Shown here one piece after another: positions 15,357 to 60,731 of a stretch of 64,000 nucleotides of DNA. Location of the stretch: IMG/VR virus record IMGVR_UViG_3300045988_183667; one strand, 5' to 3'. The DNA is from a virus. The notes under the pieces are model-generated. The model made no database searches. It was given only the letters and a program-made list of their open reading frames with translations, and was not told the DNA's origin. How positions within the stretch are numbered: the stretch's first letter is position 1; every line of letters begins with the position of its first letter. The position numbers and the translations under genes are program-made.

Positions 15357-15400
15357 TTGACATCCATAAAAATAGGTGCTATAATTAACTCATAAATGAG
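15357..15400 (+). promoter_or_regulatory. sigma70-type promoter TTGACA-17-TATAAT with palindrome CTCATAAATGAG at about +1
   Basis: TTGACA 15357..15362, TATAAT 15380..15385, palindrome 15389..15400. Confidence 0.7.
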
Positions 15401-15464
15401 AGGAAATCAGAGTAACGGTGCTCTGACATATCTTTAAAAATACATAGAAAGGATGAGGTGAAGA

Positions 15465-15914
15465 ATGAGTGATGAGAAAAACGTAAGGCACCGTTTCACG
15501 GTTCCCGTCGCTGATACCAGAGTCAACGAATGGATTGAAACCCAGTCGAACTTAGGTTTCTCGCTAAGAGTGCTGATCAAAGCCTTTATGCGGGAATATG
15601 GTATGCAGGATGCCACCTGTCTGGAACTCGGTGTTCAGGTCAAGAAAAAAGGACGTCCGCCGAAGAGTGCCCAGATACAATATGGCAACATGGAAAATGT
15701 CACAATGCAGGGCAGCCAGCTTGATGATTCTGAGGATACCGATGAATCAGAACAGGTCGCCCAAGAGCAGGAAACACCTGTGCAGGCACAGGTGGTGACA
15801 CAAAGACCCGTGGTAAAGCCTGTTTCTAATTTGACAGAAGCAGAGAAAAAATTCCAGGCAGATATGTCTGAGGGAAAACAGATTAACATGAACGATTTAG
15901 ATCGAATAATTTAG
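15465..15914 (+). CDS. ribbon-helix-helix-like DNA-binding protein with AT-hook (KKGRPPK) and acidic tail
   Basis: The N-terminal beta-strand RHRFTV plus two helices fit an RHH fold; GRPPK AT-hook; sits directly upstream of the actin-like ATPase. Confidence 0.55.
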   Translation: MSDEKNVRHRFTVPVADTRVNEWIETQSNLGFSLRVLIKAFMREYGMQDATCLELGVQVKKKGRPPKSAQIQYGNMENVTMQGSQLDDSEDTDESEQVAQEQETPVQAQVVTQRPVVKPVSNLTEAEKKFQADMSEGKQINMNDLDRII

Positions 15915-15945
15915 GTCTATAAAAATCAGAAAGGAATAGAAAACA

Positions 15946-17214
15946 ATGGCAAACAAAACAATGAATGACAAAGTTTATATGCAGATCGCAGGTCTGGACA
16001 TCGGAAACGGCTGTGTGAAGGGAACGATCGGTTCCAATGCTGGCGGAGAAACAGATATTGATATCCAGAGCGTTGCGGCAACGAATTATACAGACGCAAT
16101 TGATGAGATGAGGACTCCTTTATCCGAGGTTGAAAGCAAGATTGATGATATTTTCAACTATATGGATGCAACTTTTGAATCTCCTTGTCTGGACGAGACA
16201 GATCGTTATTTCATGGGACAGCATGCAATGGAATCCGGCAATTATCCGATGATTTTTGACGTTGGTGACGGACAGCAGAAGTCAGAACAGCCTCTGTCTT
16301 TTATCCTGACACTTGGTTCCATTGCCGGCAAGGCATTACAGGATGCATGGAATACGACACATGTTCTTCCTGAAGTGATCAATGTGAATGTAAAGGTTGC
16401 TGCACTGGCGCTTCCTATCCAGGAGTACAGACGTTTCCGTGAGAACTATGCAAGTTCCTACAAGAAGGGTGTGCATGTTGTGACGATTCAGACATTCGAG
16501 CAGGATGTCGTAGTTAATATCACATTTGAGAACGTGCAGGTTCTGGCAGAGGGTGCTTCTGCTACCTATGCAATCCGTGCAGGCGGTCCTGCTCTGGCTG
16601 AAAAGCTGATCCAGAACGCAAATGAGGCAAGTGGCCAGCACATTGAGCTGACCGGCGAGGATATTTATGGTGCTAAGGCAACTATGGGTATTGACATTGG
16701 AGAGGGCACAACGAACATGCCAATCTATGATTCTAAGGGTAACTTCAACGCAGATGCGTCCATGTCCATCAACAATGGCTACGGTGTGGTTTTGGATAAT
16801 GCAGTGAAACTTCTGCATAAGAAAGGACTGCATTTTGAGAACCGTAAGGGACTCCAGACATATCTGATGGATGACATGAACATGAAGTTCAAGGATAAGC
16901 AGTATCCTGAAGTTCAGAAAATTGTGGATACCTGCATCGAGAACTTTGCAAAGCAGATCGCTGATATTTACAAGCAGAACATGAAAACGCACAATACGCA
17001 GATCCTGGTTGTTTATGTATACGGCGGTGGTGCAACAGCAATGAAGTATTGTCTGTTCCAGGCTCTTGTGAATAGCACAAGAAAGCTGAACGGTGGCATG
17101 GATGCACAGCCTATCCTGTATTTTGACAATCCGGAAGCAAGAATGCTGAACCGTGATGGTCTTTACATCGCCGCAAAGAGAATCCTTGAGATCATGGGTG
17201 GCAGTCTGAACTAA
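15946..17214 (+). CDS. parM: actin-like segregation ATPase (ParM/StbA/Alp family)
   Basis: Phosphate-1 GLDIGNGCVKG, phosphate-2 GIDIGEGTTN and adenosine motif VYVYGGGATAM are all present. Confidence 0.85.
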   Translation: MANKTMNDKVYMQIAGLDIGNGCVKGTIGSNAGGETDIDIQSVAATNYTDAIDEMRTPLSEVESKIDDIFNYMDATFESPCLDETDRYFMGQHAMESGNYPMIFDVGDGQQKSEQPLSFILTLGSIAGKALQDAWNTTHVLPEVINVNVKVAALALPIQEYRRFRENYASSYKKGVHVVTIQTFEQDVVVNITFENVQVLAEGASATYAIRAGGPALAEKLIQNANEASGQHIELTGEDIYGAKATMGIDIGEGTTNMPIYDSKGNFNADASMSINNGYGVVLDNAVKLLHKKGLHFENRKGLQTYLMDDMNMKFKDKQYPEVQKIVDTCIENFAKQIADIYKQNMKTHNTQILVVYVYGGGATAMKYCLFQALVNSTRKLNGGMDAQPILYFDNPEARMLNRDGLYIAAKRILEIMGGSLN

Positions 17215-17314
17215 GCCAGTTTCGCTTTTTGCTCCTATAATATTTGCCGGCTCCGACACTTTGCCGGGGCTGGCAGACAAAACAAAAAAACTACATATTT
17301 GAAAGGAAATTATC

Positions 17315-18892: not shown

Positions 18893-18906
18893 ATAACTTA
18901 CATAGG

Positions 18907-19058: not shown

Positions 19059-19487
19059 ATGGTTGATTTGAGATTATGGGAACAGGTTCCAAATCATGAA
19101 AAGTTTGAACATATATCAGACAAAGCAAAGAATGCTTTGATTCAAAGCATGATAGATGATGAGAAATATCGTAACAATGAGGGTCGATATATCATTTCTT
19201 CTGATATTATGGGACGGCCTTCCGATGTAAAGATATTTGAAAAACTGGACCAGCAAAGGGTGTGTTATATGAGAAAGAAAAAAGATGCCCGTTATCTGAA
19301 TGTGAATATTGACAGACCTGTGTATGAAGAACTGGAAGCCTTCAGTGTTCATACCGGCATTTCTAAAACCGCTGCGGTACAGCATGGTCTGCGTATGTAC
19401 ATGGATGATTTCTACAGACGGAACGATGGCTTGAAAGAGGTCATTGACAGTAAAATGAATCAGAAAGAAGGACGGGATGATGAATGA
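19059..19487 (+). CDS. ribbon-helix-helix (CopG/Arc/ParG-like) DNA-binding protein
   Basis: C-terminal RHH segment YLNVNIDRPVYEELEAFSVHTGISKTAAVQHGLRMYMDD; AAGGAAG RBS; a TTGACG-18-TATGCT promoter lies upstream. Confidence 0.6.
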   Translation: MVDLRLWEQVPNHEKFEHISDKAKNALIQSMIDDEKYRNNEGRYIISSDIMGRPSDVKIFEKLDQQRVCYMRKKKDARYLNVNIDRPVYEELEAFSVHTGISKTAAVQHGLRMYMDDFYRRNDGLKEVIDSKMNQKEGRDDE

Positions 19488-21637: not shown

Positions 21638-22661
21638 ACGGATTATAGTCATCACTGATTTCTTCAGTGTCATCTTCCGGCATCTGTATTCCGGACAGCA
21701 GTTCGTTAATCGCATCAGACCGGATTGTCTTGTTTGTTTCCGTAGGTTCCGGCTGAGTTTGTCCGGTTTCTATCAGGTATGGTTTTGTGATGCATGTTTC
21801 ATAGGACAGGTCAGTATCCTGTAAGCCGGGATAGTTCTTTTCTATTACCGGGTACAGTTTCATGCAGACAGAAGCAATACACCTGTCCTGTTTCAGGCCA
21901 CGTGGAATATCATCGTCAGAAAGACAGTTTAAGTAAGCGGCTCTCGTGTCTGTGTGGGATATTATATAACGTCTGACAGGATCTTCTGTATTTTCCAGTG
22001 GTATGTTTACGGGATAGAAACGGGTTTCCATGAACGACTTGTCATAAGCATCGTCGAAAGCAGACAGGATCTCATCAACAGAAGCATACTGTTTATCTTT
22101 GATGAAATATGATGTCATGTGGGCTTTCTCGTTTACAATGTCAACAATGATGCTTTCCAGCTGGTCAGTTGGGATGTCAGGGAATTCATCGCAGAGATAT
22201 TCATAAGCACTTTCAATTCCGTACTGTTCGGCCTGGATTTCGTTCGCATTAAAACGGTAGTTACTGTCGCTTAAATAATAGTCATTGCTATACATACAGG
22301 CAATTTCCTGTATCATCTGATTCATGGAATTTTCGTCCGGATGTTCCTGTTTGAAAAGATTGTTTTTCTGGATGCAATGCATATGCTCATGATACATATT
22401 GATAACAACTTTGGCAAAATCAGTATCAGATACAGTAGGGTTTATCAGTTGTATTATGGATTTTCTAACAGGCATTGTGTTTGAAGTACTGATAGATACA
22501 TGTGAAACCATACCTGTTTCATTTGTATGTGTGCTGCCATTACCGTATGCAAGTTTGTTTGTCAGTGTGCATGGTATATTATATTGAGTAAACAGATTAT
22601 TGCTGAGAGTTTTTAATCTTGTTGCTGTTTTACGTTTGTCCAGTTTCAGTATGTTATCCAT
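21636..22661 (-). CDS. putative zinc metallopeptidase (HExxH: HEHMH), ImmA/IrrE-like?
   Basis: HEHMH motif; co-transcribed downstream of an XRE HTH regulator, as in ImmR/ImmA modules. Confidence 0.45.
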   Translation of the reverse strand: MDNILKLDKRKTATRLKTLSNNLFTQYNIPCTLTNKLAYGNGSTHTNETGMVSHVSISTSNTMPVRKSIIQLINPTVSDTDFAKVVINMYHEHMHCIQKNNLFKQEHPDENSMNQMIQEIACMYSNDYYLSDSNYRFNANEIQAEQYGIESAYEYLCDEFPDIPTDQLESIIVDIVNEKAHMTSYFIKDKQYASVDEILSAFDDAYDKSFMETRFYPVNIPLENTEDPVRRYIISHTDTRAAYLNCLSDDDIPRGLKQDRCIASVCMKLYPVIEKNYPGLQDTDLSYETCITKPYLIETGQTQPEPTETNKTIRSDAINELLSGIQMPEDDTEEISDDYNP

Positions 22662-22972
22662 AAACGACCTTCCTTTACGGCTTTTTCCAGTTCAGCTTCT
22701 TTTTCTTTTGTTATCATCATGTCTTCTAAAGTTGCCATTTCGAATTCTCTGTCATTTTTATGCTTTTTGAATTCTTCAAAAGAGCCGTATGGATAATCTG
22801 ATGACGATATATTTAATTCTTTTGCTTCAATAATATCTATTATATCCTGAACATTACGAATGTCGTATCCCATATCAAACAGCATATCTGTGAGTTTATG
22901 AAATTTTCTTTCATTCTCGGATGGTTTGTATTTTGGCAAATTAAATCTAGGTACCGGCATTATTTCCTGCAC
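22646..22972 (-). CDS. hypothetical protein (108 aa)
   Basis: ORF between the HTH and HExxH genes, with overlapping stops. Confidence 0.45.
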   Translation of the reverse strand: MQEIMPVPRFNLPKYKPSENERKFHKLTDMLFDMGYDIRNVQDIIDIIEAKELNISSSDYPYGSFEEFKKHKNDREFEMATLEDMMITKEKEAELEKAVKEGRLWITY

Positions 22973-23211
22973 TCCTTTCTGTTCTTATGGCAGTCATCGG
23001 TTTTGGGATCCGGATTTTCTTTTTCTATCCTTTCTTCCAGATCAAGAATTCTCTCGACCATATAAAGAATATGGCCGGGAGTCCGTTTGATGCCGCCTTC
23101 CCATCCCTGCAGGGTTTTTATGCTGAGATGGAATCTCTTTGCGAACTGGCTCTGGCTTAAGCCTGTCCGCGCCCTTAAGTCTTTCATTTTCTTGGTAGCA
23201 ATATTTTCCAT
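22960..23211 (-). CDS. XRE-family helix-turn-helix transcriptional regulator
   Basis: LRARTGLSQSQFAKRFHLSIKTLQGWEGG is a typical Cro/CI HTH; the start is placed at MENIATKK. Confidence 0.7.
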   Translation of the reverse strand: MENIATKKMKDLRARTGLSQSQFAKRFHLSIKTLQGWEGGIKRTPGHILYMVERILDLEERIEKENPDPKTDDCHKNRKECRK

Positions 23212-23267
23212 AATTATATTATACTCGAAAGGAGAATACATTGCAAGCAGATTTTATAGGAACAATC

Positions 23268-23316
23268 AACTGATATATCAGTTGTTCTTGACAAAATACG
23301 CTGACCAGCGTATAAT
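23268..23316 (+). promoter_or_regulatory. TTGACA-17-TATAAT promoter with two palindromic operators
   Basis: AACTGATATATCAGTT 23268..23283; -35 at 23288..23293; ACGCTGACCAGCGT 23298..23311 inside the spacer; -10 at 23311..23316. Confidence 0.7.
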
Positions 23317-28978: not shown

Positions 28979-29007
28979 TTGATAAATGAGATAATTTGTG
29001 TTAATAT
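28979..29007 (+). promoter_or_regulatory. promoter TTGATAAATGAG-17-TGtTAATAT (family motif)
   Basis: -35 at 28979..28984, extended -10 at 28999..29007, with an upstream T-tract. Confidence 0.6.
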
Positions 29008-29260
29008 CTAAGTGTTCGAGTGTGGTATTATGCACTCGGACAGGTTTTTATTTCGTCCATTACCTGTGGAGAAAATGTTGCCGTATCCACGGGCTGGAGA
29101 TAATAATAAAGTAGGGTGACCTGAATCAGCCCGAACGTAAACGCCGGAAGTTTTTGCCGGAAGTCTGAACTGTTTAGTCCGGACGATTCAATAACCTGCT
29201 TCAGTCTTTACATATGAGGACTGGAAATTATTATTAAGGTGAGAAAGGAGCATTTGCTAA

Positions 29261-34058: not shown

Positions 34059-34087
34059 TTGATAAATGAAAAGTTTTAGTGTATAAT
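34059..34087 (+). promoter_or_regulatory. promoter TTGATAAATGAA-17-TGTATAAT (family motif)
   Basis: -35 at 34059..34064, extended -10 at 34080..34087. Confidence 0.6.
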
Positions 34088-34164
34088 CATGTTTGAAATG
34101 TGATTGGCTCTTATATGAGAAAATCTGTATGTTTCAAATTATCAGTAAAGGAAGATGCAAATTT

Positions 34165-35138: not shown

Positions 35139-35468
35139 ATGGCACAGGCACCGAACACAACGAGAGTAACAGCAACCATCCCGGATGAGATGCACAAGCA
35201 GCTTTTGTTCTATGCAGCAAAGAAGGGAATTTCTATTAACCAGTATCTTTATGATGCACTGGAACATGCAATCGCTTGGGAGAATCAGGATTATCCACTT
35301 CCAACGATTGAGACAGCAAGACTTGCACAGCTTGTCGATATTGTCAGTGGTGTGAAGTCGGATGTGGAAAACATTCATAAAGTAATTGATTCCGGTTTCA
35401 ATTCCCTGCTGACATTAACAAAAGGTGATAATTATCTCCTGGATGGTTCTGAGGATGATGTAGAATGA
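35139..35468 (+). CDS. RHH-type DNA-binding protein (paralog 1)
   Basis: TRVTATIPDEMHKQLLFYAAKKGISINQYLYDALEHAIAWE has beta-alpha-alpha topology. Confidence 0.55.
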   Translation: MAQAPNTTRVTATIPDEMHKQLLFYAAKKGISINQYLYDALEHAIAWENQDYPLPTIETARLAQLVDIVSGVKSDVENIHKVIDSGFNSLLTLTKGDNYLLDGSEDDVE

Positions 35469-35860
35469 CCGGGGGTGTGGATATGCAGACAGATGAAACA
35501 ATCCGTGTGACAGCGACGCTTCCGCCGGAAATGATGATGCGTGCCGGTTACTGGGCAAAGAAACATGACATGTCGATTAACCAGTATCTTGTCTATGCAC
35601 TGGAACAGTTCATTAAATGGGACGGGGCAGACCATACAAAGTCAACACAGGAAACAGAACGCCTGAACCTGTGCGTAGACACGATAGAGGAGCTTGCCGG
35701 TTATATCCATGGTTTACAGACAGCGATTGATTCCGGGTTTGATGCTTTATCAGAAGCAACCCGTGGGGATAGTGAGTTTTTAAATCATGAGGACGGCAGT
35801 CTTGACAGGATTGACCTGACAGCAAAGACTAAGCGCAAAAAGAGACGCAGGAAGGAGTGA
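35465..35860 (+). CDS. RHH-type DNA-binding protein (paralog 2) with basic KRKKRRRKE tail
   Basis: IRVTATLPPEMMMRAGYWAKKHDMSINQYLVYALEQFIKW is clearly paralogous to the upstream gene. Confidence 0.55.
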   Translation: MTGGVDMQTDETIRVTATLPPEMMMRAGYWAKKHDMSINQYLVYALEQFIKWDGADHTKSTQETERLNLCVDTIEELAGYIHGLQTAIDSGFDALSEATRGDSEFLNHEDGSLDRIDLTAKTKRKKRRRKE

Positions 35861-38364: not shown

Positions 38365-38393
38365 TTGATAAATGAGCGTTTTTATGTTACGAT
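38365..38393 (+). promoter_or_regulatory. promoter TTGATAAATGAG-17-TGtTACGAT (family motif)
   Basis: -35 at 38365..38370; weaker -10 at 38388..38393. Confidence 0.5.
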
Positions 38394-40949: not shown

Positions 40950-40978
40950 TTGATTTATCAGTGATATACATATATAAT
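40950..40978 (+). promoter_or_regulatory. promoter TTGATT-17-TATAAT flanked by inverted repeat TCTGGCATCAC / GTGGTGCCAGA
   Basis: 40950..40955 and 40973..40978; inverted-repeat arms at 40932..40942 and 40984..40994. Confidence 0.5.
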
Positions 40979-48348: not shown

Positions 48349-48377
48349 TTGATAAATGAGTTAATTTGTGTTAATAT
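48349..48377 (+). promoter_or_regulatory. promoter TTGATAAATGAG-17-TGtTAATAT (family motif; near-identical to the 28979 copy)
   Basis: -35 at 48349..48354, -10 at 48372..48377. Confidence 0.6.
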
Positions 48378-48457: not shown

Positions 48458-49864
48458 ATGGCGAGTGCAAAAGGAAAAGATGATATGGCTGCAAAAGCGA
48501 AGAGTGTAAGAGCAGCAAGATTTAAGCTTGGTCCACACAATACTATGGAACGCTTTTGTGCTACGTTTATTGCATTTGTTGTTTTGCTGGGACTTATTGT
48601 TACCAGCGCTGTTCATCAGAAAGTGGAAAACGGCAAAGTGACATTGACGGAGCAGGCTATTTACGGTACAGGTGAGACACAGTTCTCTCTGACACAGGAT
48701 GTTGTCAAGATTGATGGACTATGGACAAATGAGGGTCATACGAAAGCATTGATTTTAATCCATCTTCCCGGCGGTATGACAAATCTGTCAACACAGGCAG
48801 GAGATTATCAGATGTTCATGACCGGTGTAAATACGGATTTGAAATGTTCTCCTTCCGGTAGTATTTATGTATTCGGAAGTACAGGATATATTGGTCTGGG
48901 ATTTACGAATTCTTCCGGATTTGATCCGGCTGCATATAAGATTACACTGAGAAATATTTCTTATATGTCAGAAGGTGATGAAGAAGCTGCAAAGGCCGCT
49001 CATGACGGTAAGGAAGGTTCTTATATGTATCATAATGAGTTGAACATTGTTGCTAACTTTGCAGCAAGCGGAGCAAATACAGCAAAGTTCTATTCAAAGG
49101 CTGATTACACAGCAACAGATATTTACAACGAGCTTGTTCAGAGTAATCTGATTGCAGAAAAAGTGAGTGAGTGTGATGCTCTTGTAGCCGATATCAACAC
49201 GTCTATGAGAAAGGCAAATGAATATGCCCGTCGTCTGGAGACAGCAGGTATCACAATGGAAAGTAATTTGCCGGCTGAGATTTATGGTGATAGCATTTCT
49301 ATCACAGAATCAGATAGCATGCCGATTTATTTTGATTCTAATTATATGCTGTATGCTTCTTCCGGAAAGCTGGATTCTTCCAATGGCTGGTTTACCTGTC
49401 TGGACACTACAAAAGCAACAGATTTCCCGGAGGGAAGTAAGCTGTATTATAACACGAGTTATGTATTCCCTGGTGGTCTGAATTATAATTATCAGGATTT
49501 GACATCTGAGTCCGACCTGCTTTCCGAAGTAATTCCTGCGGGTATGACATATGTTCAGTTCATGGATTATCTGAATGAGCAGCAGACTACATACACTGTA
49601 AGCTCAACCGCAAAATTCGGTAACTATATTGACACGAGGAATGGTACAACTTTCTCGAAGGATCAGAGCAACACAGATCTTGTCGGTGACGATGCAAAGA
49701 CGAATATTGGAAACTATGAAGATGCAATATCCAATATCTTTTCAAAGAAGCGTGATCTGCAGATTACAAAGCTCCGTGATTTGCTTAAGATTTATTATTC
49801 ATCTTCATCCATTAACGATATGACATCTGTTTACATGGATAATGATGCTCTTGTAATGTATTAA
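48458..49864 (+). CDS. membrane-anchored T4SS-associated protein (N-terminal TM; possibly VirB8-like)
   Basis: Start placed at MASAKGKDD with an AAAGGAACGAAAATC RBS; TM helix FIAFVVLLGLIVTSAV. Confidence 0.5.
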   Translation: MASAKGKDDMAAKAKSVRAARFKLGPHNTMERFCATFIAFVVLLGLIVTSAVHQKVENGKVTLTEQAIYGTGETQFSLTQDVVKIDGLWTNEGHTKALILIHLPGGMTNLSTQAGDYQMFMTGVNTDLKCSPSGSIYVFGSTGYIGLGFTNSSGFDPAAYKITLRNISYMSEGDEEAAKAAHDGKEGSYMYHNELNIVANFAASGANTAKFYSKADYTATDIYNELVQSNLIAEKVSECDALVADINTSMRKANEYARRLETAGITMESNLPAEIYGDSISITESDSMPIYFDSNYMLYASSGKLDSSNGWFTCLDTTKATDFPEGSKLYYNTSYVFPGGLNYNYQDLTSESDLLSEVIPAGMTYVQFMDYLNEQQTTYTVSSTAKFGNYIDTRNGTTFSKDQSNTDLVGDDAKTNIGNYEDAISNIFSKKRDLQITKLRDLLKIYYSSSSINDMTSVYMDNDALVMY

Positions 49865-49882: not shown

Positions 49883-52800
49883 ATGGCTAGTAAAGTAAAT
49901 CTGGATGATTTGCCATATGACGAATATCAGAAAGAGATGGCCAGGATCGAAGCTGAGGCTGCTGAGCAGGCAAAAAATGCCGAGCTCGGCAATCAGCCTA
50001 TGCCGGAAAATGACGAGCATAGCAGCTTTGACGATTTTGTTGGAAAACAGAAAAGTGCTGCTCTTGGTGAGGATGAGTCAGAAGGTGGTGAAAATAGTCC
50101 GTCTGATGATGTTGTAGGAGATCAGGCAGATGATCCCACAACGGGTGATAAAGAAGTTGTAACAGAAGAAAGCAATCCGGAAGCCTTTAGAGCCGGTCAG
50201 GAACTGGAAGAAAAAATGTCTGCGTTGAAGGGCGGAGCTGAGCGTAGTGTCAGTGGTGCTTTTCAGAATTTTCTTGGCGGTTTGAAAGGTCTTTTTGCCG
50301 GTGCATCTGCCGGTGCATTGCGAACTGTTATGAATATCGGAGAAAGAATGGGTATTCCAAAACCGGCTACATTTGGAATCTTGTTCATTCTCGGAGGTGG
50401 TACATTCGCTGGAATAGCAGGATTGTTAGGTAATAATAATGATTCATATAAATATGGTAGTGCATCTAGTGATTGCGAAGTGATGGAAGAAATGTATCGT
50501 GAAAACAGCATATATAAGGCACCAACGCAGGATCAATTAGATAGTAGTGCAGGTGCATTATTTAATGCCTTAAATTCAGATATGCACTTTAAATATGCTA
50601 TTCGTAATGGTGGTACAGGTGTTCTTGATGGTATTCAGGATGACATATTTGATGATGGGTATGAATATGATTACGTGCAGGATCCGGCAGACAGATATGA
50701 CTGGAATGGAGACGGTGTAATTGATGATGAAGATGATAGATCCCGTCACATTTCTGGTGGTTATCATGATTATGATAATATTGTGGAAAAGTTTCAGGAT
50801 GAACAGATTCTTGGAATGATTATGAATGCATCCGCAGAATCAAATATAAATCCGTCTACATATGAGATGAATTACCGTGTTGGACCAACTGAAGAATCAA
50901 ATGGAACATCAGATTATTATTTGAGTTTGCCTGATACCGTGAAGGATATGATTTTGTCACGTACACATCATGTACAATGGAATTCATATTGTGAAAGAAT
51001 GTTTGCTTTGTATGCAGCTGATGGAACATCAATCAATACATCTGCTTATCTATATACAGATCAATTTGGAAATACGAAGGATGCTTCTGGTAAACAGAAT
51101 TATTATCCGGGGGTTGGCTTATGGCAATGGACAGGCCAACGTGGTTACAATCTTCACTGGTTCTCAAATCAGTTGAAAGATAATACAGATGCAGACGGTG
51201 ATGGTGCAAATGATGCTATGTACAGTTTGAATGTGCAGATTGCTTATCTTGTTGAGATAGAAGCAAAACCTGTTACGGTGAATGGTGTTGATGTTCCAAT
51301 TAAAGATTGGGGTCATGAAGTTGTATCATCTTATCAGGTTGAGTATTACGTGAATGTGCCGTATAAGAATAGCATTGGTACTGACCCAGGTGGAATAGCT
51401 AACTGGATTCCTATGAATGACTATCAGGATCCAACTGATAGGAGCATGCGTGTTGCGTGGGATGCTTATGATCAGCTTCGTTCTCAGGCAAAATATAAAT
51501 ATGAATCACCATCGGGTGCCCGTTTGTCTGACAAGAACTACGATGATGCCCGTGATGCTGTTTATCTTTCTGATTCAGACAGATACAATGGAAATATCAC
51601 AGCTTTTGATGATGCTCCATTCCCGGTGAAAGATTATGTATATAATCGTAATGGAAGTATTTATAAAGAGGAAAAGCATAAATACGGTTCTGGCGAAGTA
51701 GAAGACGGAACGGAACAGTCAGATCAGGATGAAAACGGTGACGGTGTAGTTGATTCAAATGATACACGTACAGCGTATAAGACTGTTTACGGCTATGATA
51801 TAAATGATGACGGCGTCATTGATGAAGATGATCTTTTGATCGAAGATGGAAAACTGGCTGGTCATGAAGGTTTCGATGTTGACGGTGATGGAACAATTGA
51901 TGTCTGGGACATGAATGATAATGGTGAGATTGACGATGATGGTTCAGACTGGTATGTTGATCATGACGGATATAATGATGATGAATACAAAGACGGGATC
52001 TTCATTCCAAAGGAAGTATATTACCAGAATATCAGTATTATGGTTCTTGCATCTGCTGATGGTGATTATAACAGTAGTGAGTACATATATGAGAATGATT
52101 CTCATGCTCTTCGCCAGTACAATGATACAACGACTACAATTGATTATACGCATGAAAAAGCAAAAATTGTATACCAGTCACCCGGTATTACAGCAATTGA
52201 TGTGTGGGATGAAAAACCATGGGGTAACGGTACATACACGGTTGCAAACTTTTCAGAAGCCGGTGGTGTATCTGTAGATTATAAAGCCATACAGGAAGGC
52301 GATACGTGGTGGGATCAGTTGGAAGCTGCAAGAAAAGACCATACGAATTACGGAAAAGAAACAGATGATCCCCGTGATGCGTTTCGGTCTACAGCTGATA
52401 CATGGCGTGATGAAATTTGGATCTGGGCCAATGCTCATGCAAGAGCTGCCGTTGCCCGTAATAAGGGTCTGGAATTTGCTATTGGATGGGTTGGCTGTCC
52501 GGGCGGCATGCTGGAATCGCATACAATGTTTGTAACCGGTGGTTCATCATTTGCCGGAAGACTGGACACAACAGCATATAATAAAAAGGCTGATTGTCTG
52601 GAACATTACGCTGAGTGTATGTTAAAGATTGACTGGCACGGTAGCGATAAGCAGGGTAAGAGTATTACAGATCTTTTGTATGAAGATATGAATTCAAGAT
52701 CCGTTCGTAATACATGGGAGAGAGATAATTCTTATTGTGGCGGCGATTTTGACAATTCTTCTATCGCAGCATGTGCTGTCAGCTGGGCATGGTTAAAAGG

Positions 52801-53431
52801 ACATAACAGTGATGCAGATGTCAATCTGTCAGCGCTGGATCCAAGCGGATGTCCGAAGGCTTATCTGTGTACATCACTTTACTGTGCAGTGCATGATATT
52901 GTGTATCCGAATGATCCGTATTACTCGTCTTGTGACAGAGGCGCCGGCACGGCAGTAAGGGCTTCCGGTTCGGATGATGAATATCCACCAGGAAATCCAT
53001 ATCAGCAGTTTGACCACATGCGGTCAAGACCAACAGAATGGCAGGATTGCGGTCCGCTCGCAAGTGCGTGGAGTTCCATGGAACCGGGAGACATCATTGT
53101 TTCTACAGGTACAAGTTCAAGACATATCATCGTGTTTGTCGGACCGGATGCCGTATATGAGAAGTGGGGTAACTCCGTAGGAGATGCGACACACGCAATT
53201 GTGCATTCTTCACACTCTTCTGACCTGTCCAGTTCCAGAGGTCCGAGATGTGACCTTGACGGTTCTTATCTGCTCAGTGACAGTTCACACGGCTACCGTG
53301 TGTTCCGCTGTATGAATCAGGATACGAATAGTTCGACGCTGAAGTCTGCAGTAGATGCACAGTCAAGTTCTCTCGGTGGTCTTAACAATGGAGATGGTAA
53401 TGGTGGTGGTTACTATGCACCTCAGTATTGA
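49883..53431 (+). CDS. T4SS cell-wall hydrolase (lytic-transglycosylase-like + NlpC/P60-like) with Asp-rich Ca-binding-like repeats
   Basis: TM segment; GVGLWQWTGQRGYNLHWF...AMYSLNVQIAYLVEIE (lysozyme-like); DxDGDG loops (DVDGDGTIDVWDMNDNGEIDDDGSD); C-terminal PGDIIVSTG...HIIVFVG with Cys upstream. Confidence 0.55.
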   Translation: MASKVNLDDLPYDEYQKEMARIEAEAAEQAKNAELGNQPMPENDEHSSFDDFVGKQKSAALGEDESEGGENSPSDDVVGDQADDPTTGDKEVVTEESNPEAFRAGQELEEKMSALKGGAERSVSGAFQNFLGGLKGLFAGASAGALRTVMNIGERMGIPKPATFGILFILGGGTFAGIAGLLGNNNDSYKYGSASSDCEVMEEMYRENSIYKAPTQDQLDSSAGALFNALNSDMHFKYAIRNGGTGVLDGIQDDIFDDGYEYDYVQDPADRYDWNGDGVIDDEDDRSRHISGGYHDYDNIVEKFQDEQILGMIMNASAESNINPSTYEMNYRVGPTEESNGTSDYYLSLPDTVKDMILSRTHHVQWNSYCERMFALYAADGTSINTSAYLYTDQFGNTKDASGKQNYYPGVGLWQWTGQRGYNLHWFSNQLKDNTDADGDGANDAMYSLNVQIAYLVEIEAKPVTVNGVDVPIKDWGHEVVSSYQVEYYVNVPYKNSIGTDPGGIANWIPMNDYQDPTDRSMRVAWDAYDQLRSQAKYKYESPSGARLSDKNYDDARDAVYLSDSDRYNGNITAFDDAPFPVKDYVYNRNGSIYKEEKHKYGSGEVEDGTEQSDQDENGDGVVDSNDTRTAYKTVYGYDINDDGVIDEDDLLIEDGKLAGHEGFDVDGDGTIDVWDMNDNGEIDDDGSDWYVDHDGYNDDEYKDGIFIPKEVYYQNISIMVLASADGDYNSSEYIYENDSHALRQYNDTTTTIDYTHEKAKIVYQSPGITAIDVWDEKPWGNGTYTVANFSEAGGVSVDYKAIQEGDTWWDQLEAARKDHTNYGKETDDPRDAFRSTADTWRDEIWIWANAHARAAVARNKGLEFAIGWVGCPGGMLESHTMFVTGGSSFAGRLDTTAYNKKADCLEHYAECMLKIDWHGSDKQGKSITDLLYEDMNSRSVRNTWERDNSYCGGDFDNSSIAACAVSWAWLKGHNSDADVNLSALDPSGCPKAYLCTSLYCAVHDIVYPNDPYYSSCDRGAGTAVRASGSDDEYPPGNPYQQFDHMRSRPTEWQDCGPLASAWSSMEPGDIIVSTGTSSRHIIVFVGPDAVYEKWGNSVGDATHAIVHSSHSSDLSSSRGPRCDLDGSYLLSDSSHGYRVFRCMNQDTNSSTLKSAVDAQSSSLGGLNNGDGNGGGYYAPQY

Positions 53432-53504
53432 TCTGCTGTAAGAAGTGCCACGGGTGCATGAATTGTGTATCCGTGGTATTATTTTGTATAGAGAGGTGGT
53501 AAAG

Positions 53505-54362: not shown

Positions 54363-54391
54363 TTGATAAATGAGAGTTTTAGTGTTATAAT
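54363..54391 (+). promoter_or_regulatory. promoter TTGATAAATGAG-17-TGTTATAAT (family motif)
   Basis: -35 at 54363..54368, -10 at 54386..54391. Confidence 0.6.
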
Positions 54392-54443: not shown

Positions 54444-55895
54444 ATGGCAAGAAGTTATGATGGAACGCGTTCTGCTTCCGCCCGTGAAGAGGTAGAACGT
54501 GACAAGCAACAGCAGGCTGCCATGCATGTACGCATCGAACGTGGTGTAGTCATCGGTGCAATCGTGGTGGCCGGTCTGGCTGTTGTTCTTAATACAGGAC
54601 GTTGTATCAGTTATGCCGGTTCTACCGGTGAGTACAGAACACAGCAGGCAGAAGCCGAAACCACGCTGGCAGAGCTTCAGGATAAGCTGCAGGATCCGTC
54701 TTCACAGAATTATGTGTATAAAGATCCTACGGTTGGAAACATGAAGGATACCGGACAGGCAATCGCCACATTACAGAACCAGATCATTTCAGCACAGCAG
54801 CTTCGGAATAATCAGTCAACACAGGCGCAGACTGTTCCGGGAAACAACACGGTGTCTGATTTCGGGGATCATTCATCTTCCGGTACACAGACAGGTGGTG
54901 CTGTGACACTGGATCCGACAGATCTGGCTCCTTCAGGAACCACAGCGCCGGATACGGAGACAGTGGAGCAGGATGCTGCAACGATTCCCGAGACAACGGA
55001 ATCATCCGGCAGCAGTTATGAATATACACCAATTACGGATTTCAACAGTATCGGCACGGTGGACAATTCTCAGACGACTTCCGGAAACACAGTGGATAAC
55101 AGTTCTTCGATGGCGTTAAACGCTGTTTCAGAATCGACAGGACGTGATCTGGCACAGTTGATGACCGAGTTCAAACAAAAGTATTACGCACAGGTTGTCA
55201 ATAATGTTGACGGCAATGATGTTGCCTGGTCATGGTACGGTTACTGGGAGTTCGCCGGAACGTATGATTATTCTGTGAATGAAACACCTACGATGAAAGC
55301 TGTGTGGATCTGTTATGAGCCATCTGATACTGCACATGTGAAGCCTCTTGGTTTTGTGACAGCAACGTATACGGAAGCTACAAAGAAGTTCACGAACATG
55401 ACGGCAACTTATACACAGGCTTATACAAAGAAGGCTGAGGGTCAGGCTAATAATTTTGGACAGACCTTTAACAATAATAATCAGGCATCGGGTTCTTCTT
55501 CTACAATGACGACAGGTTCTAATCAGGGAACATTGTCACCGGATATGCCGGGACAGAACGGACAGGGTTCTGAAAATGAATATAAGCCGAATATCGTAGA
55601 AGATGATGCAGATAACATCTCTATTGAACCTGATACATCAAATAACACAAATGCCGGTAATAGCAGTGGCAATACAAATTCGACGTCCGGTTCTTCTACA
55701 ACGAATACGACACCTGCAAATAATCCGTCTGGATCAGCTACGTGGAATCCCGGCAGTGATACAGGAACAACGAGTGGAACACCTGCCGGAACATGGAATC
55801 CGAATGGCAGTACAGGAACCACCGGTTCATGGAATCCAAACGGCACGACACCTGCCGGAAGCAGCAATTCCGGTTCGTGGACACCTGCAAATTAA
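54444..55895 (+). CDS. N-terminally anchored protein, paralog B, with Ser/Thr/Asn-rich tail
   Basis: WSWYGYWEFAGTYDYS...AVWICYEPSDTAHVKPLGFVTATY; tail repeats GTWNPNGSTGTTGSWNPNGTT. Confidence 0.5.
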   Translation: MARSYDGTRSASAREEVERDKQQQAAMHVRIERGVVIGAIVVAGLAVVLNTGRCISYAGSTGEYRTQQAEAETTLAELQDKLQDPSSQNYVYKDPTVGNMKDTGQAIATLQNQIISAQQLRNNQSTQAQTVPGNNTVSDFGDHSSSGTQTGGAVTLDPTDLAPSGTTAPDTETVEQDAATIPETTESSGSSYEYTPITDFNSIGTVDNSQTTSGNTVDNSSSMALNAVSESTGRDLAQLMTEFKQKYYAQVVNNVDGNDVAWSWYGYWEFAGTYDYSVNETPTMKAVWICYEPSDTAHVKPLGFVTATYTEATKKFTNMTATYTQAYTKKAEGQANNFGQTFNNNNQASGSSSTMTTGSNQGTLSPDMPGQNGQGSENEYKPNIVEDDADNISIEPDTSNNTNAGNSSGNTNSTSGSSTTNTTPANNPSGSATWNPGSDTGTTSGTPAGTWNPNGSTGTTGSWNPNGTTPAGSSNSGSWTPAN

Positions 55896-55913
55896 GTAAA
55901 GGAGAATGAGATT

Positions 55914-56624
55914 ATGCTTGAAATACTTGATTTCTTACAGGAGCATAAAAAGGCTGTGATTGCTGTTGCAATTATGATTTTATGCATCCTTATCAGCGGT
56001 GGCATTGCAAAGTCGTTTGCAAAGTCCAATGCCTCGGCAGCAGATTCCCTGTCCACGGTGAATAATAAGATTTCCAACGTGCAGGATCAGCTGAACCAGC
56101 CGCAGACAAAATGGAAAGAATTAGATCACGGGTATCATCAGTCCCGTGTGAACAGGGACATGGATATTCTGATCGGTTCCGGTACAGGAAACGGCAACAC
56201 GAATGAATGGCTTTCCAGATTCCTTACCTGGAATAGCGGCGATGAGTATAAAGAGAATCATCAGTGGTTCGTGGAAAAGCTCGGTTCCAATAACGTGTTC
56301 TGTACGACGATTATGAGACCGTATGACAAAGAGATCTCTCTTTCAGATTCCGGTGCCGTAAATGATCCGAACAATATTCAGTGTGCTCTTGATGTGCAGC
56401 AGACAAAGGCGAATGTCTATGTCAATTCCATCAATGAGAGCAACGATACTTACAATTATGTTATTTTTGCATATTTTAATGCAAAAGCCGCAAGAGCAAA
56501 TCAGTCATTTGATGCCATGGACAAGGTACAGTGTTATATCGTAACCGTTTCAGTAGACGCTGACGGAAATGTGTTACCTAACACGTTTATTGTATCTGCC
56601 GGACCGACATCAACGATTGATTAA
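55914..56624 (+). CDS. N-terminally anchored hypothetical protein (236 aa)
   Basis: TM helix AVIAVAIMILCILISGGIA; RBS AAAGGAGAATGAG. Confidence 0.5.
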   Translation: MLEILDFLQEHKKAVIAVAIMILCILISGGIAKSFAKSNASAADSLSTVNNKISNVQDQLNQPQTKWKELDHGYHQSRVNRDMDILIGSGTGNGNTNEWLSRFLTWNSGDEYKENHQWFVEKLGSNNVFCTTIMRPYDKEISLSDSGAVNDPNNIQCALDVQQTKANVYVNSINESNDTYNYVIFAYFNAKAARANQSFDAMDKVQCYIVTVSVDADGNVLPNTFIVSAGPTSTID

Positions 56625-56654
56625 ATAAATCAGATACAGAAAGGAACATCTATC

Positions 56655-57044
56655 ATGGGAACATTCAAGGACACATTCAAGAAAGAAATGGCTGTTCAGA
56701 AAGCTGCAAAGGAGCAGGCAAAGGCAGAAAAGAAGAAAGAACGTGAAAGCAAGGGACCTCTCGCTGTAAGGATCCTTGCAAATACGAAAAACATCGGTAT
56801 CTGCGGTCTTTATACAATTGCTTATATGCTGGTAGTTTACTGCATCGTGCTTTTTATCACAATGTATCTTCCATCCCTGCTTAATGTCATCGTATCCTAC
56901 TTTGATGCATCCACGTCTATCGTGCTTACGGTAGAATGTGCATGCCTGTTTTTCACCGCATGGATTTTCGTAATCTCTTTCGTGATTATCAAGAAGATCA
57001 CGAAGGTTTACACCGGCGGCATCAAAGCATTATTCAGTAAATAA
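56655..57044 (+). CDS. small polytopic membrane protein
   Basis: Lys-rich N-terminus followed by 3 hydrophobic helices. Confidence 0.5.
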   Translation: MGTFKDTFKKEMAVQKAAKEQAKAEKKKERESKGPLAVRILANTKNIGICGLYTIAYMLVVYCIVLFITMYLPSLLNVIVSYFDASTSIVLTVECACLFFTAWIFVISFVIIKKITKVYTGGIKALFSK

Positions 57045-57052
57045 GTTTTGGC

Positions 57053-57106: not shown

Positions 57107-57138
57107 TGAGAAATTCCAATAAAAAGCCATTATGTCTA

Positions 57139-57167
57139 TTGATAAATGAGACAAAATGTGGTATTCT
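57139..57167 (+). promoter_or_regulatory. promoter TTGATAAATGAG-17-TGgTATTCT (family motif)
   Basis: -35 at 57139..57144, -10 at 57162..57167; ~100-nt leader. Confidence 0.5.
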
Positions 57168-57270
57168 TTGTATTGGGTATTTTAGCACACATAATCATGT
57201 AACGCATTAACAATACATATATGGCGGTGTGACATATCCGTCAGAAAAAAGTTGAAAGGAGTTTCAGCAT

Positions 57271-58542
57271 ATGCATACAGTTACCGTGTATAATACTGAT
57301 TCAATCAAAGCCAGAGACATTCTCTCCCAGGTTTCAAATGATGATGTTTTAACCGAGATGGTGGAATGTGTCGGCAAAGTGTACATCGAGCAGTGCTTTT
57401 TTAACATGGAGCGCCGTTTTGATGGTGGTCTTGGCAATCTGGAGTTGAAGATCCTCGGCACTGTGAAAGAACTGTTTATTGAAGATTACGATGACAGACA
57501 GTTCCCTTGCAGCACCAAGAACATCAATTTCACAGATGCAGAACCTGTTATGATCAACATGCAGCTTACGGCAAAGGAGAAGGGTCACCTGTTTGAGTGT
57601 GGTGTAGATCATCCTGGATTCGAGCCGCCTGCAAACATGAAGTACAATGTCATGGAGATTCCGATGCTCATTGAGTACAAGGGTATCTATGAATCGCCGG
57701 TATGTTTCGCAAGAATTATCCGTCCGAATGAGATTCAGACGAGTACAAAGAAATGCGGCTATTATGGTCTGTTTGATCTGGTTGCAAAGCATCCGGATGT
57801 TGTCCGTGAAGAGGAGAATGGCGGTATCGACATCAATCTTAACAAGACATCACCTGAGATCCGTATGGCTGCCCCTGTAAAGACCATGCTGAATGAGAAG
57901 AGTTCTGAAGTGAACAAGACACTGGCTGCCGCCGCAAAAGAGGAGCCTGTCGATAAGAGCGTGGCTGCTGTCCGTGAGACAATCACAGAGCGTATGGTAA
58001 CGAAGCCTGTAAATCCTAAGGCTTCTGAGACGACTGTGAAGATTTATGAGAAGTCTGTAGAGGAATATACAGAGAAATCCAATGTCAAGGATGCAACGAA
58101 TGTATCTGACATTGATTCCGGTGAAACACCTCAGAATACAGACAATGTGATTCCTTACACTGTGCGTCAGATGGATTCTGCACTCTATGGTATGCTTTCC
58201 CAGAATGTCAGCAAGCATGCTGAAAAGATTGAGCAGGCCCGTAAGGATGGTAAGAATATCCCGTTCAACGCAAGTCTGGATGAAGACGGTCATGTTTATG
58301 ACGGCATGACTGGTGAATTCGGTGATGAGGATAAGTCCCTGTCAAAGGCAGAGCGTGAGAAGAGACGTCAGATCAATCTGGCAAGAAGAGCCGACATCGC
58401 AGCTGACAATAAGGCTCTGAATGAGGACGCAAGTGCGGATATTTCCGGTCAGGGTGCTTCCGTTAAGAAGACATCTGCTCAGGAGCTGTTAAGCGGCATC
58501 ATGAGTACTCCGAAGAGTTCTTCCGGTCAGCAGTATCTTTAA
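57271..58542 (+). CDS. hypothetical protein (423 aa) immediately upstream of relaxase (possible relaxosome accessory)
   Basis: Complete ORF ending 21 nt before the relaxase start. Confidence 0.55.
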   Translation: MHTVTVYNTDSIKARDILSQVSNDDVLTEMVECVGKVYIEQCFFNMERRFDGGLGNLELKILGTVKELFIEDYDDRQFPCSTKNINFTDAEPVMINMQLTAKEKGHLFECGVDHPGFEPPANMKYNVMEIPMLIEYKGIYESPVCFARIIRPNEIQTSTKKCGYYGLFDLVAKHPDVVREEENGGIDINLNKTSPEIRMAAPVKTMLNEKSSEVNKTLAAAAKEEPVDKSVAAVRETITERMVTKPVNPKASETTVKIYEKSVEEYTEKSNVKDATNVSDIDSGETPQNTDNVIPYTVRQMDSALYGMLSQNVSKHAEKIEQARKDGKNIPFNASLDEDGHVYDGMTGEFGDEDKSLSKAEREKRRQINLARRADIAADNKALNEDASADISGQGASVKKTSAQELLSGIMSTPKSSSGQQYL

Positions 58543-58563
58543 GATGTAAACGAGGTGTGATGT

Positions 58564-60702
58564 ATGGGTTTGAAACAGTCAATAGTTGTAAAAAATGAAT
58601 TTTCATGCAGGACAGCTACTGGCGGGACGAGAGGCGGATCGTTAGACAATTATGTTCTTGATTATATGAGCCGTAATGGCGGTGCCACGGAGATACTCAC
58701 ACCTGTGAAGCTGGACGATAATCAGAATTATATTCTGAATTATATGCTTCGTGATGAAGCAACCGAGTCTGCGGATTCCGTTTCCGGTTTAAAACAGGAT
58801 TTCCGGGATCTGCAGGGTCTTGGCGGAAGGGCGTTCGGATATGGTGAAGTTTCACTGTCTGACAAAAGGCTCCGTGAAGCGGCAAAGGATGTGCAGAAGA
58901 ATTTCAAGGCAGGAAAGACAATCTTAAAGACCGTTATTTCTTTTACGGATGATTATCTGAAAAAGACCGGTATTGTCCGTTCGGATTTCGAGTGCAGTCT
59001 TCCCGGTGATTATCGTGGAAACATTGACCAGCTGAAGTTACGCATGGCAATTATGAATGGTCTTTCCAAAGTGGCGAGAGGCTATGATGACTTGCAGTAT
59101 GTTGGTGTGATACAGGTAGATACGGAGCACGTACACTGCCATCTTGCCATGTTTGACAAAGGTGAAGGAACACGGATGCCGGACGGAACACAGCGCGGCA
59201 AGCTCACGGACCGCATGATGCGGGATTTGCGCCGGGGTGTGGACACTTATCTGGATGAGAAACAGACAGTTAAGATGATGGCCTCTTCTGTCAATTATGA
59301 CAAGCAGAACACGGTCGGATATATCAAGCGTTTTACACATGAAACGATGAACAACAGGGGACTTGCACAATTCATGATCGCCTGTCTCCCGGAAGACCGG
59401 TCGCTCTGGCGTGCCGGTTCCAATGCGTCAGAAATGCGTAAGGCAAATGGTATTGTCCGTGAGTATGTAGAACAGGTGCTTTCCCAGCCGGATTCCGGTT
59501 TTGAGGATGCCATGAAGGCTGTAAGGAAATATGCCGGTTACAGACGTAACCGTGAAGACCTGACAGGACAGTATTATCGTGAGCTCATAAGTTCCAAACA
59601 GAATGAGATTATTACGGATAGTATGAATGCCGTGTATGCTGTGTTGAAACAGATACCGGAAGATGGCTTACAGACACAGACGCCGCTTATGGATGTCATG
59701 AGCCTGCCATACGAGGACGCAGCAGATGTAATAGGAACTGCAATCAGTGAGCCGGATACGGTGGCTGAATTTGGTTTCCGTCTGCGTTCCTACAAGTCAA
59801 GGCTGGATCATCATGCTGCTGAATTTCAGAAGTATCATGCAAACCGTATTGCTTACGAGGAACAGAGGTCTGATCCTGACGAAAGAAGGCGTCCTGTACC
59901 AGAATCTGCGGCTGTGTATGAGTTTTACCTTGTGGAAGAACAGTACAATGAAATGCTGATGAACAAATACCAGTATTTTCTGGATTTTATCCCGCCGGAA
60001 GAAACATATCGTAAAGATCTGGACGAACTGACAAATTATGCGAGACAGATCACAGCATGGCAGCGTATGATAGATGATGCCGATATGCGCCGGATGTCGG
60101 TTGACACGGCAGAACAGTATGGAAAACGGGTGCATAATCTCTCAGACGGGCATCTGATGGTTGTAAACCCAGAGGCGCTGTCCGACAGGGTAAGTGATAT
60201 GAGAAAGCACTATGCCGGTATGCGTGAGGTGTATAGTGCGAAGCTCGCAGCCCTTGGTTTTGAACTGACAGAAGATGACACGTTACAGCGTGGCAGGAAA
60301 TATGATTTTGATGCTGTGAAGGCATTGGATCTGCATCATATGATGTATGATTTCCCTTATGATTTTGCAATTCCGCAGGATCAGTCCCGTTCTTTTGTAG
60401 GAATGGCAGATAAAAGGCTTGCCGCATTCGAGAAGGCAGCCGCTTATCTGAAGGCATCCGGACAGGAAGACATGATAAAAAATCTGTCAGGCTCCGACAT
60501 CCAGTCGCAGCATATTCTGGCTGACAGGTTCCGCAGGACAGATGCCGGTTTTACCACGGCTCGTGAAGAGGCTCTTACAAAAAGACGCCAGTCACGTACC
60601 ATTCGTCTGGATTATGATTTTTATGTTCATCAGGAAGAGGATTTGAAAGAAGATATTAAATCCATTGTAAAAAATACAGTTTCGACCTTGCAATATGAGT
60701 AA
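58564..60702 (+). CDS. MobA/MobL-family (MOBQ-like) conjugative relaxase
   Basis: N-terminal TATGGTRGGSLDNYVLDYMSRNGG (compare the RSF1010 MobA Tyr motif); H-x-H-x-H metal site DTEHVHCHL. Confidence 0.7.
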   Translation: MGLKQSIVVKNEFSCRTATGGTRGGSLDNYVLDYMSRNGGATEILTPVKLDDNQNYILNYMLRDEATESADSVSGLKQDFRDLQGLGGRAFGYGEVSLSDKRLREAAKDVQKNFKAGKTILKTVISFTDDYLKKTGIVRSDFECSLPGDYRGNIDQLKLRMAIMNGLSKVARGYDDLQYVGVIQVDTEHVHCHLAMFDKGEGTRMPDGTQRGKLTDRMMRDLRRGVDTYLDEKQTVKMMASSVNYDKQNTVGYIKRFTHETMNNRGLAQFMIACLPEDRSLWRAGSNASEMRKANGIVREYVEQVLSQPDSGFEDAMKAVRKYAGYRRNREDLTGQYYRELISSKQNEIITDSMNAVYAVLKQIPEDGLQTQTPLMDVMSLPYEDAADVIGTAISEPDTVAEFGFRLRSYKSRLDHHAAEFQKYHANRIAYEEQRSDPDERRRPVPESAAVYEFYLVEEQYNEMLMNKYQYFLDFIPPEETYRKDLDELTNYARQITAWQRMIDDADMRRMSVDTAEQYGKRVHNLSDGHLMVVNPEALSDRVSDMRKHYAGMREVYSAKLAALGFELTEDDTLQRGRKYDFDAVKALDLHHMMYDFPYDFAIPQDQSRSFVGMADKRLAAFEKAAAYLKASGQEDMIKNLSGSDIQSQHILADRFRRTDAGFTTAREEALTKRRQSRTIRLDYDFYVHQEEDLKEDIKSIVKNTVSTLQYE

Positions 60703-60731
60703 TTATGGTGTATAATTTGCTCATAAATGAG
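60688..60731 (+). promoter_or_regulatory. promoter TTGCAA-17-TATAAT with palindrome CTCATAAATGAG at about +1
   Basis: -35 at 60688..60693, -10 at 60711..60716, palindrome 60720..60731 (same 3-nt spacing after the -10 as at 15389). Confidence 0.55.

Follow-up and report, generated by a model that had tools for sequence, protein, structure and literature searches.

What is the function of a 12-bp sequence that recurs at the promoters of a single mobile element, overlapping the -35 box at six of them and lying just past the -10 box at two others? The question is raised by a 64,000-nucleotide stretch of viral-database DNA (IMG/VR record IMGVR_UViG_3300045988_183667; hereafter the window), in which these promoters lie between positions 15,357 and 60,731. 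The window comes from a conjugative, megaplasmid-like element of an uncultured gut Lachnospiraceae bacterium, and the element belongs to an undescribed, widespread family. We favour the reading, with a probability of about 0.6, that the sequence is one operator at which one element-encoded repressor acts in both positions, much as KorA does at its operator OA.

The six sites of the first kind (class A) start at the first base of a TTGATA-N17-TAnnnT promoter: TTGATAAATGAG is present exactly at 28979, 38365, 48349, 54363 and 57139, and TTGATAAATGAA at 34059. At the two window sites of the second kind (class B), CTCATAAATGAG is present exactly at 15389 and 60720, each time 3 nt past a TATAAT. With up to one mismatch allowed, TTGATAAATGAG has seven matches in the window against 0.72 expected, and none of 100 shuffles reaches seven; the seventh match, at 25752, lies within the coding sequence of an Xre-type helix-turn-helix (HTH) protein and has no -10 box. 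The 9-mer ATAAATGAG is found eight times, on the plus strand only, against 0.87 expected. The degenerate pattern YTSATWWATGAR, with 0.6 matches expected, picks out the eight sites and no others in 64 kb. These are all intergenic plus-strand sites, and the minus-strand gene array at 1-15.2 kb contains no copy. A consensus scan called sigma-70-like promoters with 17-nt spacers at 8 of 8 sites, both the promoters and their start sites being predictions. In class A, the -35 box matches the consensus at five of six bases and the -10 boxes at four to six, and a TGn extension is present in five of the six; the class B promoters read TTGACA-17-TATAAT and TTGCAA-17-TATAAT.

The motif and promoter scans also bear out the architecture that the first-pass annotation had described for all six class A promoters, as well as its placing of the full repeat 3 nt downstream of the -10 box at 15389 and 60720. 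Two details need amending. The 29-bp formula stands as an architecture, except that its '11 nt' already contain the TGn (12 + 8 + 3 + 6 = 29). The two classes do share a core, but the repeat is not the perfect palindrome it was taken for: the reverse complement of CTCATAAATGAG is CTCATTTATGAG, which makes it a 5-bp inverted repeat around an asymmetric AA centre.

Of the class B promoters, TTGACA-17-TATAAT-TAA-CTCATAAATGAG (15357-15400, plus strand) precedes the operon of a ribbon-helix-helix (RHH)-like protein and the actin-like ATPase ParM. Among the orthologous par promoters of related loci (denoted by L numbers), that of L012 is identical, and the same arrangement is found with CTTGTAAATGAG in L013 and L095 and with CTCATAAACCAG in L014. 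The second, TTGCAA-17-TATAAT-TTG-CTCATAAATGAG (60688-60731, plus strand), lies upstream of gene 60762-61685 and a ClpB-like ATPase gene, and is kept as a promoter-operator in L006-L009 and L015-L020. A third, belonging to a VirD4-like gene, is found just outside the window.

The first of the class A promoters, which are all on the plus strand, is TTGATAAATGAG...TGtTAATAT (28979-29007), upstream of the adhesin gene 29261-33940. The next, TTGATAAATGAA...TATAAT (34059-34087), serves the operon of a sortase and the RHH proteins 35139 and 35465, and a possible second operator, the single-copy CTCTTATATGAG with one mismatch (34108-34119, plus strand), stands at about +15 of this promoter. TTGATAAATGAG...TGtTACGAT (38365-38393) is upstream of the topoisomerase gene 38430-40922; the site at 48349-48377 is upstream of the membrane-protein gene 48458-49864 and the lysozyme-domain gene 49883-53431; that at 54363-54391, upstream of genes 54444-57044, is kept in five related loci (L006, L007, L008, L016 and L018); and that at 57139-57167 is upstream of gene 57271-58542 and the MobL relaxase gene 58564-60702. 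When five orthologous regions of the last promoter are aligned, what is invariant is TTGATAAAT plus the -10 box. A variant with an ATCAG arm, TTGATTTATCAG, covers the -35 box of the promoter of the 41039 operon (40950-40978, plus strand); its membership of the regulon is uncertain, and similar TTGATAAATCAG sites are found at -35 boxes in L012, L025, L066 and L096. Several of the eight promoters have a terminator-like hairpin upstream.

Could the repetition be due to chance, or to recent duplication of a promoter cassette that has no specific function? The copies at 28979 and 48349 do have about 36 of 40 bases in common around the site. The observed counts, however, are never attained in shuffles, and the sites are conserved at orthologous promoters down to 44% relaxase identity with diverged flanks, which leaves this explanation hardly credible. 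We located syntenic loci through relaxase homologues of 69, 67, 60, 53, 51 and 49% identity, and a metagenome scan with a relaxase alignment added 80 further loci, the motif statistics being computed over 88 loci (1.48 Mb). In relatives with 44-73% relaxase identity the site is kept at the same promoter positions. In those of 69, 67 and 60%, the 12-mer and the -10 box are kept, with diverged flanks, at the promoters that precede the orthologues of 54444 and 57271 and at the one behind the relaxase gene, and in those of 53% and 49% the class B sites are kept. One relative expected to be compact likewise has 42 kb between par and relaxase.

Over the 88 loci the motif occurs in 143 distinct contexts, 84 of them inside promoter-like sites, and the promoter-linked offsets peak sharply at two values: motif start at the start of the -35 box (32) and 3 nt past the -10 box (29). 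Eight permuted control motifs gave 4-30 matches, with 0-3 linked to promoters. Of the 34 loci with a relaxase identity of 44% or more, 27 have promoter-linked sites; of the 20 with 43% or less, one does. Class A prevails in the clade of at least 55% relaxase identity and class B in that of 47-54%, and the first genes behind class B sites mostly encode type IV secretion-like structural components, not regulators. Matches in the high-GC loci L063 and L068 are probably not operators; they lie at the extreme end of the tblastn relaxase match and probably within the 3' end of the relaxase coding sequence (L-I/V-N-E in frame, as judged by eye).

The only cultured relative in PLSDB is the 639-kb plasmid NZ_CP109461.1 of Streptomyces sp. 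NBC_01454 (L097, L098 and L099), whose MobL is 41% identical to that of the window. Its transfer genes are in the same order, and it also shares the RHH-like/ParM pair and a 35139-type RHH protein. At about 70% GC, its syntenic transfer block contains four variant sites, GTCATTTATGAG, CTCATAAACCAG, TTGATATTCGAG and CTGATTTTTCAG, all of them intergenic and sitting in transfer promoters; the variant-site scan gave 7 strand-matches against 0.94 expected. Since the site is kept across two phyla, the protein that binds it is likely to be encoded by the element, and a host factor is unlikely. As side observations, PLSDB types this plasmid as non-mobilizable, and its transfer promoters share a TCGAATGG motif upstream of the -10 box.

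As judged by comparison of sequences, the class A and class B motifs are one site in two interchangeable positions. Both classes share ATAAATGAG and show the same spectrum of variants. Individual promoters change class between related elements: L004, L015 and L008 have a class B promoter at the VirD4-like gene where L006 has class A, and at gene 48458 and its orthologues the window and L025 have class A where L022, L029, L058 and L060 have class B. In L032, L041, L043 and L046 a single promoter has both positions occupied (ttgCCTCATTTATGAG...TATAATataCTCATAAATGAG). The post-relaxase promoter was considered as a further case of class switching and dropped, the downstream gene being non-homologous in the 45% clade.

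It is conceivable that the class A motif is no more than an extended -35 box, a promoter signature of a dedicated sigma factor or a host preference whose likeness to the repeat at +1 is coincidental; TTGATA is a good -35 box, and its spacing to the -10 box is identical in all class A sites. We consider this very improbable. The same 9-12 bases occur past the -10 box, where a -35 function is impossible, and TTGATATATGAG itself, with the TTGAT arm, is found at the +1 position in L007 and L018. Window promoters that lack the motif mostly have TTGACA and continue with unrelated bases (TTGACAtcc, TTGACAaaa, TTGACAatg, TTGACGgat), the window proteins that were scanned yielded no sigma factor, and variants of the site accompany promoters of a different type in the Streptomyces plasmid.

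A site centred near -29.5 in a promoter with a 17-bp spacer is in a repressor position, not in that of a class II activator or a MerR-type regulator. This is the geometry of the class A sites at 6 of 6 promoters (centre at about -29.5, spacer 17); a class II centre at -41.5 or a long MerR-type spacer of 19-20 bp is found at none of them. Because the class A promoters are, in addition, close to consensus, we read both classes as repression. The first-pass annotation had recognised one site of a dedicated regulator in both motifs, which conservation at orthologous promoters with diverged flanks supports, with the regulator probably element-encoded; its proposal of activation at the -35 class and repression at the +1 class is not supported. 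Such a dual regulator would account for two position classes that are real and sharply defined, and for class A sites having only one perfect arm, which could mean partial occupancy. It has precedents among RHH proteins: omega of Inc18 is an activator at partial occupancy and a repressor at full occupancy (PMC4627068), and AmrZ has both activities (PMC3325190). Near-consensus promoters, however, should need no activator, the centre and spacer fit neither known mode of activation, a change of class between sister elements would turn activation of an operon into repression or the reverse, and some promoters carry the site in both positions. Dual control is therefore, in our view, quite unlikely.

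Two considerations nevertheless weigh against simple repression by one protein at independently placed sites. By analogy with omega, a positive effect at the half-degenerate class A sites is possible, and the fixed offsets could partly reflect shared ancestry of the promoters and not independent placement.

The single-repressor reading that we prefer would work as follows, protein binding, the repressive sign and the identity of the protein being what we infer from the DNA and protein sequences. YTSAT-WW-ATGAG (ideally CTCAT-AA-ATGAG) would be the operator of one element-encoded, sequence-specific DNA-binding protein. This putative protein would bind at eight or more SigA-type promoters, each time within the footprint of RNA polymerase, and repress all of them. 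At the two class B promoters of the window (RHH-like/ParM and post-relaxase), the full inverted repeat would cover about -3 to +9; at the six transfer and surface operons, the left arm would be fused with the -35 hexamer, so that the site covers -35 to -24. TTGATA, which is invariant in class A, matches TTGACA at five of six bases and CTCATA at four of six, and may represent a compromise between the two that leaves two mismatches in the arm; because of these mismatches, class A sites are probably the weaker operators. The outcome would be negative feedback, in graded strength, on the genes for partition and conjugation, like that of the class I and class II KorA operators of RP4. Two features common to short-operator global repressors are directly observed: an inverted repeat recurs far above chance, and its sites lie inside the predicted RNA polymerase footprint.

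KorA acts at a 12-bp symmetric operator at seven RP4 promoters and binds perfect sites more than 10-fold tighter than half-degenerate ones (PMC2665229); in RK2/RP4, genes for replication, partition and transfer are joined in one negative-feedback circuit (PMC2665229; PMC4889941). The KorA/OA system of the IncP-1 plasmids RK2/RP4, which operates together with KorB and TrbA, is similar in that a symmetric 12-bp operator recurs at about seven promoters of a single conjugative plasmid. It differs in the operator sequence, OA being the unrelated GTTTAGCTAAAC, and in that KorA is an established HTH protein whereas the binder here is at candidate level. OA sites overlap the -10 box; here the two fixed positions are fused to the -35 box or 3 nt after the -10 box. 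A second co-repressor operator of the KorB OB type was not found next to the sites, and KorA has proteobacterial hosts whereas the present site is found in Firmicutes and Actinobacteria.

The RHH protein omega of Inc18 (pSM19035) is likewise a small protein of Firmicute plasmids with repeats embedded in the promoters of several operons (PMC4627068), and is also the centromere-binding protein of a partition system (PMC4627068; PMC9499535), which by analogy would make it the model if the ParR-like protein encoded at 15465 is the binder. Omega, however, binds 7-bp heptads in arrays, while the sites here are 12-bp inverted repeats that stand singly, and heptad arrays were not found in the window; the partner of omega is a ParA ATPase, where here it would be the actin-like ParM; and the omega targets are copy-number control, partition and omega-epsilon-zeta, not transfer genes (PMC4627068). 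The ParR-parC arrangement of type II (ParMRC) partition systems also places a gene for an actin-like ATPase beside one for a small DNA-binding adaptor (here a candidate), with the site on their own promoter. The differences are that in our element the adaptor gene comes first, there is no iteron array, and the site recurs at seven or more distant promoters. Plasmid repressors that keep transfer genes off by acting at core promoters are known from R388 and, as Rco, from pLS20. The latter also has a MobL relaxase and relies on one main transfer promoter and a Rco/Rap/Phr switch; in the present element each operon has a promoter and operator of its own, and no Rap/Phr-like genes were seen. The circuit resembles the KorA/KorB and omega regulons, and the comparison with them that had been drawn for a regulon spanning partition and transfer genes is apt; it is a member of neither because the operator is unrelated, heptad arrays are absent and the ATPase is ParM, not ParA.

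Which protein might bind the operator? Our leading candidate, although we give it somewhat less than an even chance, is the small ParR-like protein of 149 amino acids encoded directly upstream of ParM (15465-15914, plus strand). It has a predicted strand-helix-helix N-terminus, an AT-hook, an acidic tail and a conserved C-terminal peptide. In 25 homologues of 40-100% identity the first ~65 residues are nearly invariant, including R8-H9-R10-F11-x-V13-P14 and the GRP AT-hook; the AT_hook model matches 7 of the 25 members, and the tail varies while the C-terminal peptide is kept. The class B site is found 3 nt past the -10 box of the gene's own promoter in 5 of 5 Firmicute par loci examined, and the Streptomyces homologue keeps K-R-T (K/R, R, T) at the likely DNA-facing positions.

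Several results weigh against this candidate. An RHH fold received no support from Pfam, NCBIfam or a PDB profile search, nor from hhalign against an approximate Arc sequence, and the AlphaFold2 (AF2) monomer model has a predicted local distance difference test (pLDDT) score of 56. In L013 and L095 the site at the homologue's own promoter is the degenerate CTTGTAAATGAG, with better sites elsewhere in the element. In NZ_CP109461.1 the par promoter carries four GTGTCTC-N4-GTGCCCC iterons and no operator, and the transfer promoters carry operator variants and none of these iterons.

The alternative pair, two tandem RHH paralogues of 109 and 131 amino acids (genes 35139 and 35465; 35139-35860, plus strand), is in our estimate a doubtful candidate. 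Like 15465, it is encoded in an operon carrying the site, in this case a class A operon with the second near-site at 34108, and the leader of its Streptomyces homologue carries TTCATAGATCAG. The 35139 protein has weak HicB and YlcI matches. The DNA-facing strand residues vary widely in its family, which is therefore a poor fit for a deeply conserved operator. There is a substantial chance, below one half, that the regulator is another protein, either unrecognised or with its gene beyond the window. The Streptomyces plasmid lacks homologues of the Xre protein at 25734 and the RHH protein at 19269, and a tblastn search of ~90 relaxase-centred loci with six small DNA-binding proteins found none of them.

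According to one alternative, the sites are chiefly centromere-like or DNA-processing sites spread over the element, to which the ParR-like adaptor of the actin-like ParM system or an accessory protein of the relaxosome binds, and transcriptional control is secondary. No iteron, heptad or tandem array that could be a separate parC was found in the window, so the adaptor needs another site; omega and KorB are centromere binders that double as global repressors; and a C-terminal domain is conserved in the RHH proteins of the 35139 type. The sites, on the other hand, are locked to promoter elements with single-base precision, which points to selection for a role in transcription; known ParR centromeres do not look like single 12-bp sites; and the Streptomyces relative has a classical par iteron array, separate from its operator variants. 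We hold a mainly centromeric role to be rather unlikely. A combined role, in which 15465 would be both the ParM adaptor and the global repressor of the transfer regulon, with the operators of at least eight promoters serving as a dispersed centromere, is a speculative possibility. If true, type II partition would have in this protein what type Ia has in KorB and type Ib in omega, and the operator, in a family of megaplasmid-like elements of about 350 kb from gut Lachnospiraceae, would be so old that Streptomyces plasmids share it.

An inverted repeat upstream of the par operon, GCCCATTTTG...CAAAAATGGTC (15300-15347), is found once in the window and kept in all par loci, with the form GCCCACTTTG/CAAAAGTGGGC in L095, and is followed by a run of eight T on the minus strand. 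It was considered as parC and rejected: both arms change together in L095 with the protein's strand unchanged, and a hairpin is more likely. It is probably a terminator or insulator hairpin between divergent promoters.

Some other sequences may be related operators. A perfect 18-bp palindrome, CAACTGATATATCAGTTG (23267-23284), stands just before the -35 box of the promoter that serves the helicase operon (23288-23316); an Xre-type HTH gene on the minus strand (22960-23241) runs divergently. The arms of the palindrome, CTGAT/ATCAG, are those of the main operator with C and G symmetrically swapped, and by its sequence it may be a second, related operator type. CTGAT/ATCAG arms with a 6-nt spacer, which could be a hairpin, are present in L012. 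L010 (51% relaxase identity) has another repeated -35 motif, ACTTGATTATCAGTATTTTTT, at 6516-6653 and 15872-16099, with TTGAT/ATCAG arms and a 1-nt spacer; it uses TTGATTATCAG, and no CTCAT-type site was found in its 22 kb. This may reflect a change of operator specificity.

Other features lie in leaders and gaps. Downstream of the 28979 promoter, a terminator-like hairpin with a T-run (29013-29042) lies ~10-40 nt past the predicted start, in the ~250-nt adhesin leader; it has no Rfam match and may be an attenuator. The leader of the gene before the relaxase contains a conserved block, GGTATTTTAGCACACAT...GTGTGA (57168-57260), with a CACAC/GTGTG hairpin kept in L006-L008, and is a candidate origin of transfer (oriT) or leader structure. 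After the lysozyme-domain gene, a hairpin CCACGG...CCGTGG surrounds a promoter-like site (53432-53504); a class B operator is intact there in L007, L009, L011 and L096, and the window copy is decayed (TTTGTATAGAGAG).

The gene content of the window was identified by scans with Pfam, NCBIfam and related profiles. ParM (15946-17214) matches ALP_N and MreB-like_C, and sources name its homologues ParM/StbA; the adhesin has 1559 amino acids and seven T-Q ester domains; the relaxase matches PF18555 (MobL) with E = 1e-51. The scans also identified the sortase, the topoisomerase, the lysozyme domain, a flotillin-like gene, a helicase and a DUF2130 gene; they returned no family match for most of the other window genes, and Rfam and tRNA scans of the window gave no match. 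The ClpB-like AAA+ ATPase gene (61691-64000 in the window; 13128-16049 in L004) carries LAGLIDADG/Hom_end, intein-like domains, which are also present in the VirD4-like gene of L007. A protein of 105-108 amino acids ending in ...EGKLWITY is encoded once in the window (22646-22972, minus strand) and three times in L012 (16015-18649), where a promoter of the TTGATA/TTGGTA type precedes each copy and a gene sharing an HxHCxQKN motif comes after two of them; such a pair may serve as variable cargo or in defence.

Stretches of 16 kb and 25 kb from the window gave no megablast match in phage collections or in the PLSDB plasmid collection, and ParM gave none in viral contigs. The 351-kb RAMP15-1 scaffold_1 (ENA ERZ28623069) contains an identical relaxase and a Lachnospiraceae metagenome-assembled genome a copy of 98% identity, and the syntenic transfer block is common to the window and its relatives. 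In independent assemblies, the RHH-like/ParM genes recur on contigs of 337-377 kb and related relaxases on contigs of 400-411 kb, which suggests complete megaplasmid-sized replicons and not integrated elements.

Global repressor circuits are the rule in conjugative plasmids; what is new here is an operator network in an undescribed element family. Searches of a literature library did not find the 12-mer, nor anything on MobL in Lachnospiraceae. The family has no cultured representative and next to no annotated genes, and it turns up in numerous metagenomes from the gut and other sources, frequently on contigs of 200-400 kb. A conserved operator marks promoters, delimits operons and provides a sequence tag for related elements. 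It also defines a co-regulated set that comprises partition genes, the adhesin, the sortase, the topoisomerase, parts of the type IV secretion system, the relaxase and the coupling protein. Testing a few small proteins against one 12-mer could reveal the master switch of conjugation in these gut plasmids.

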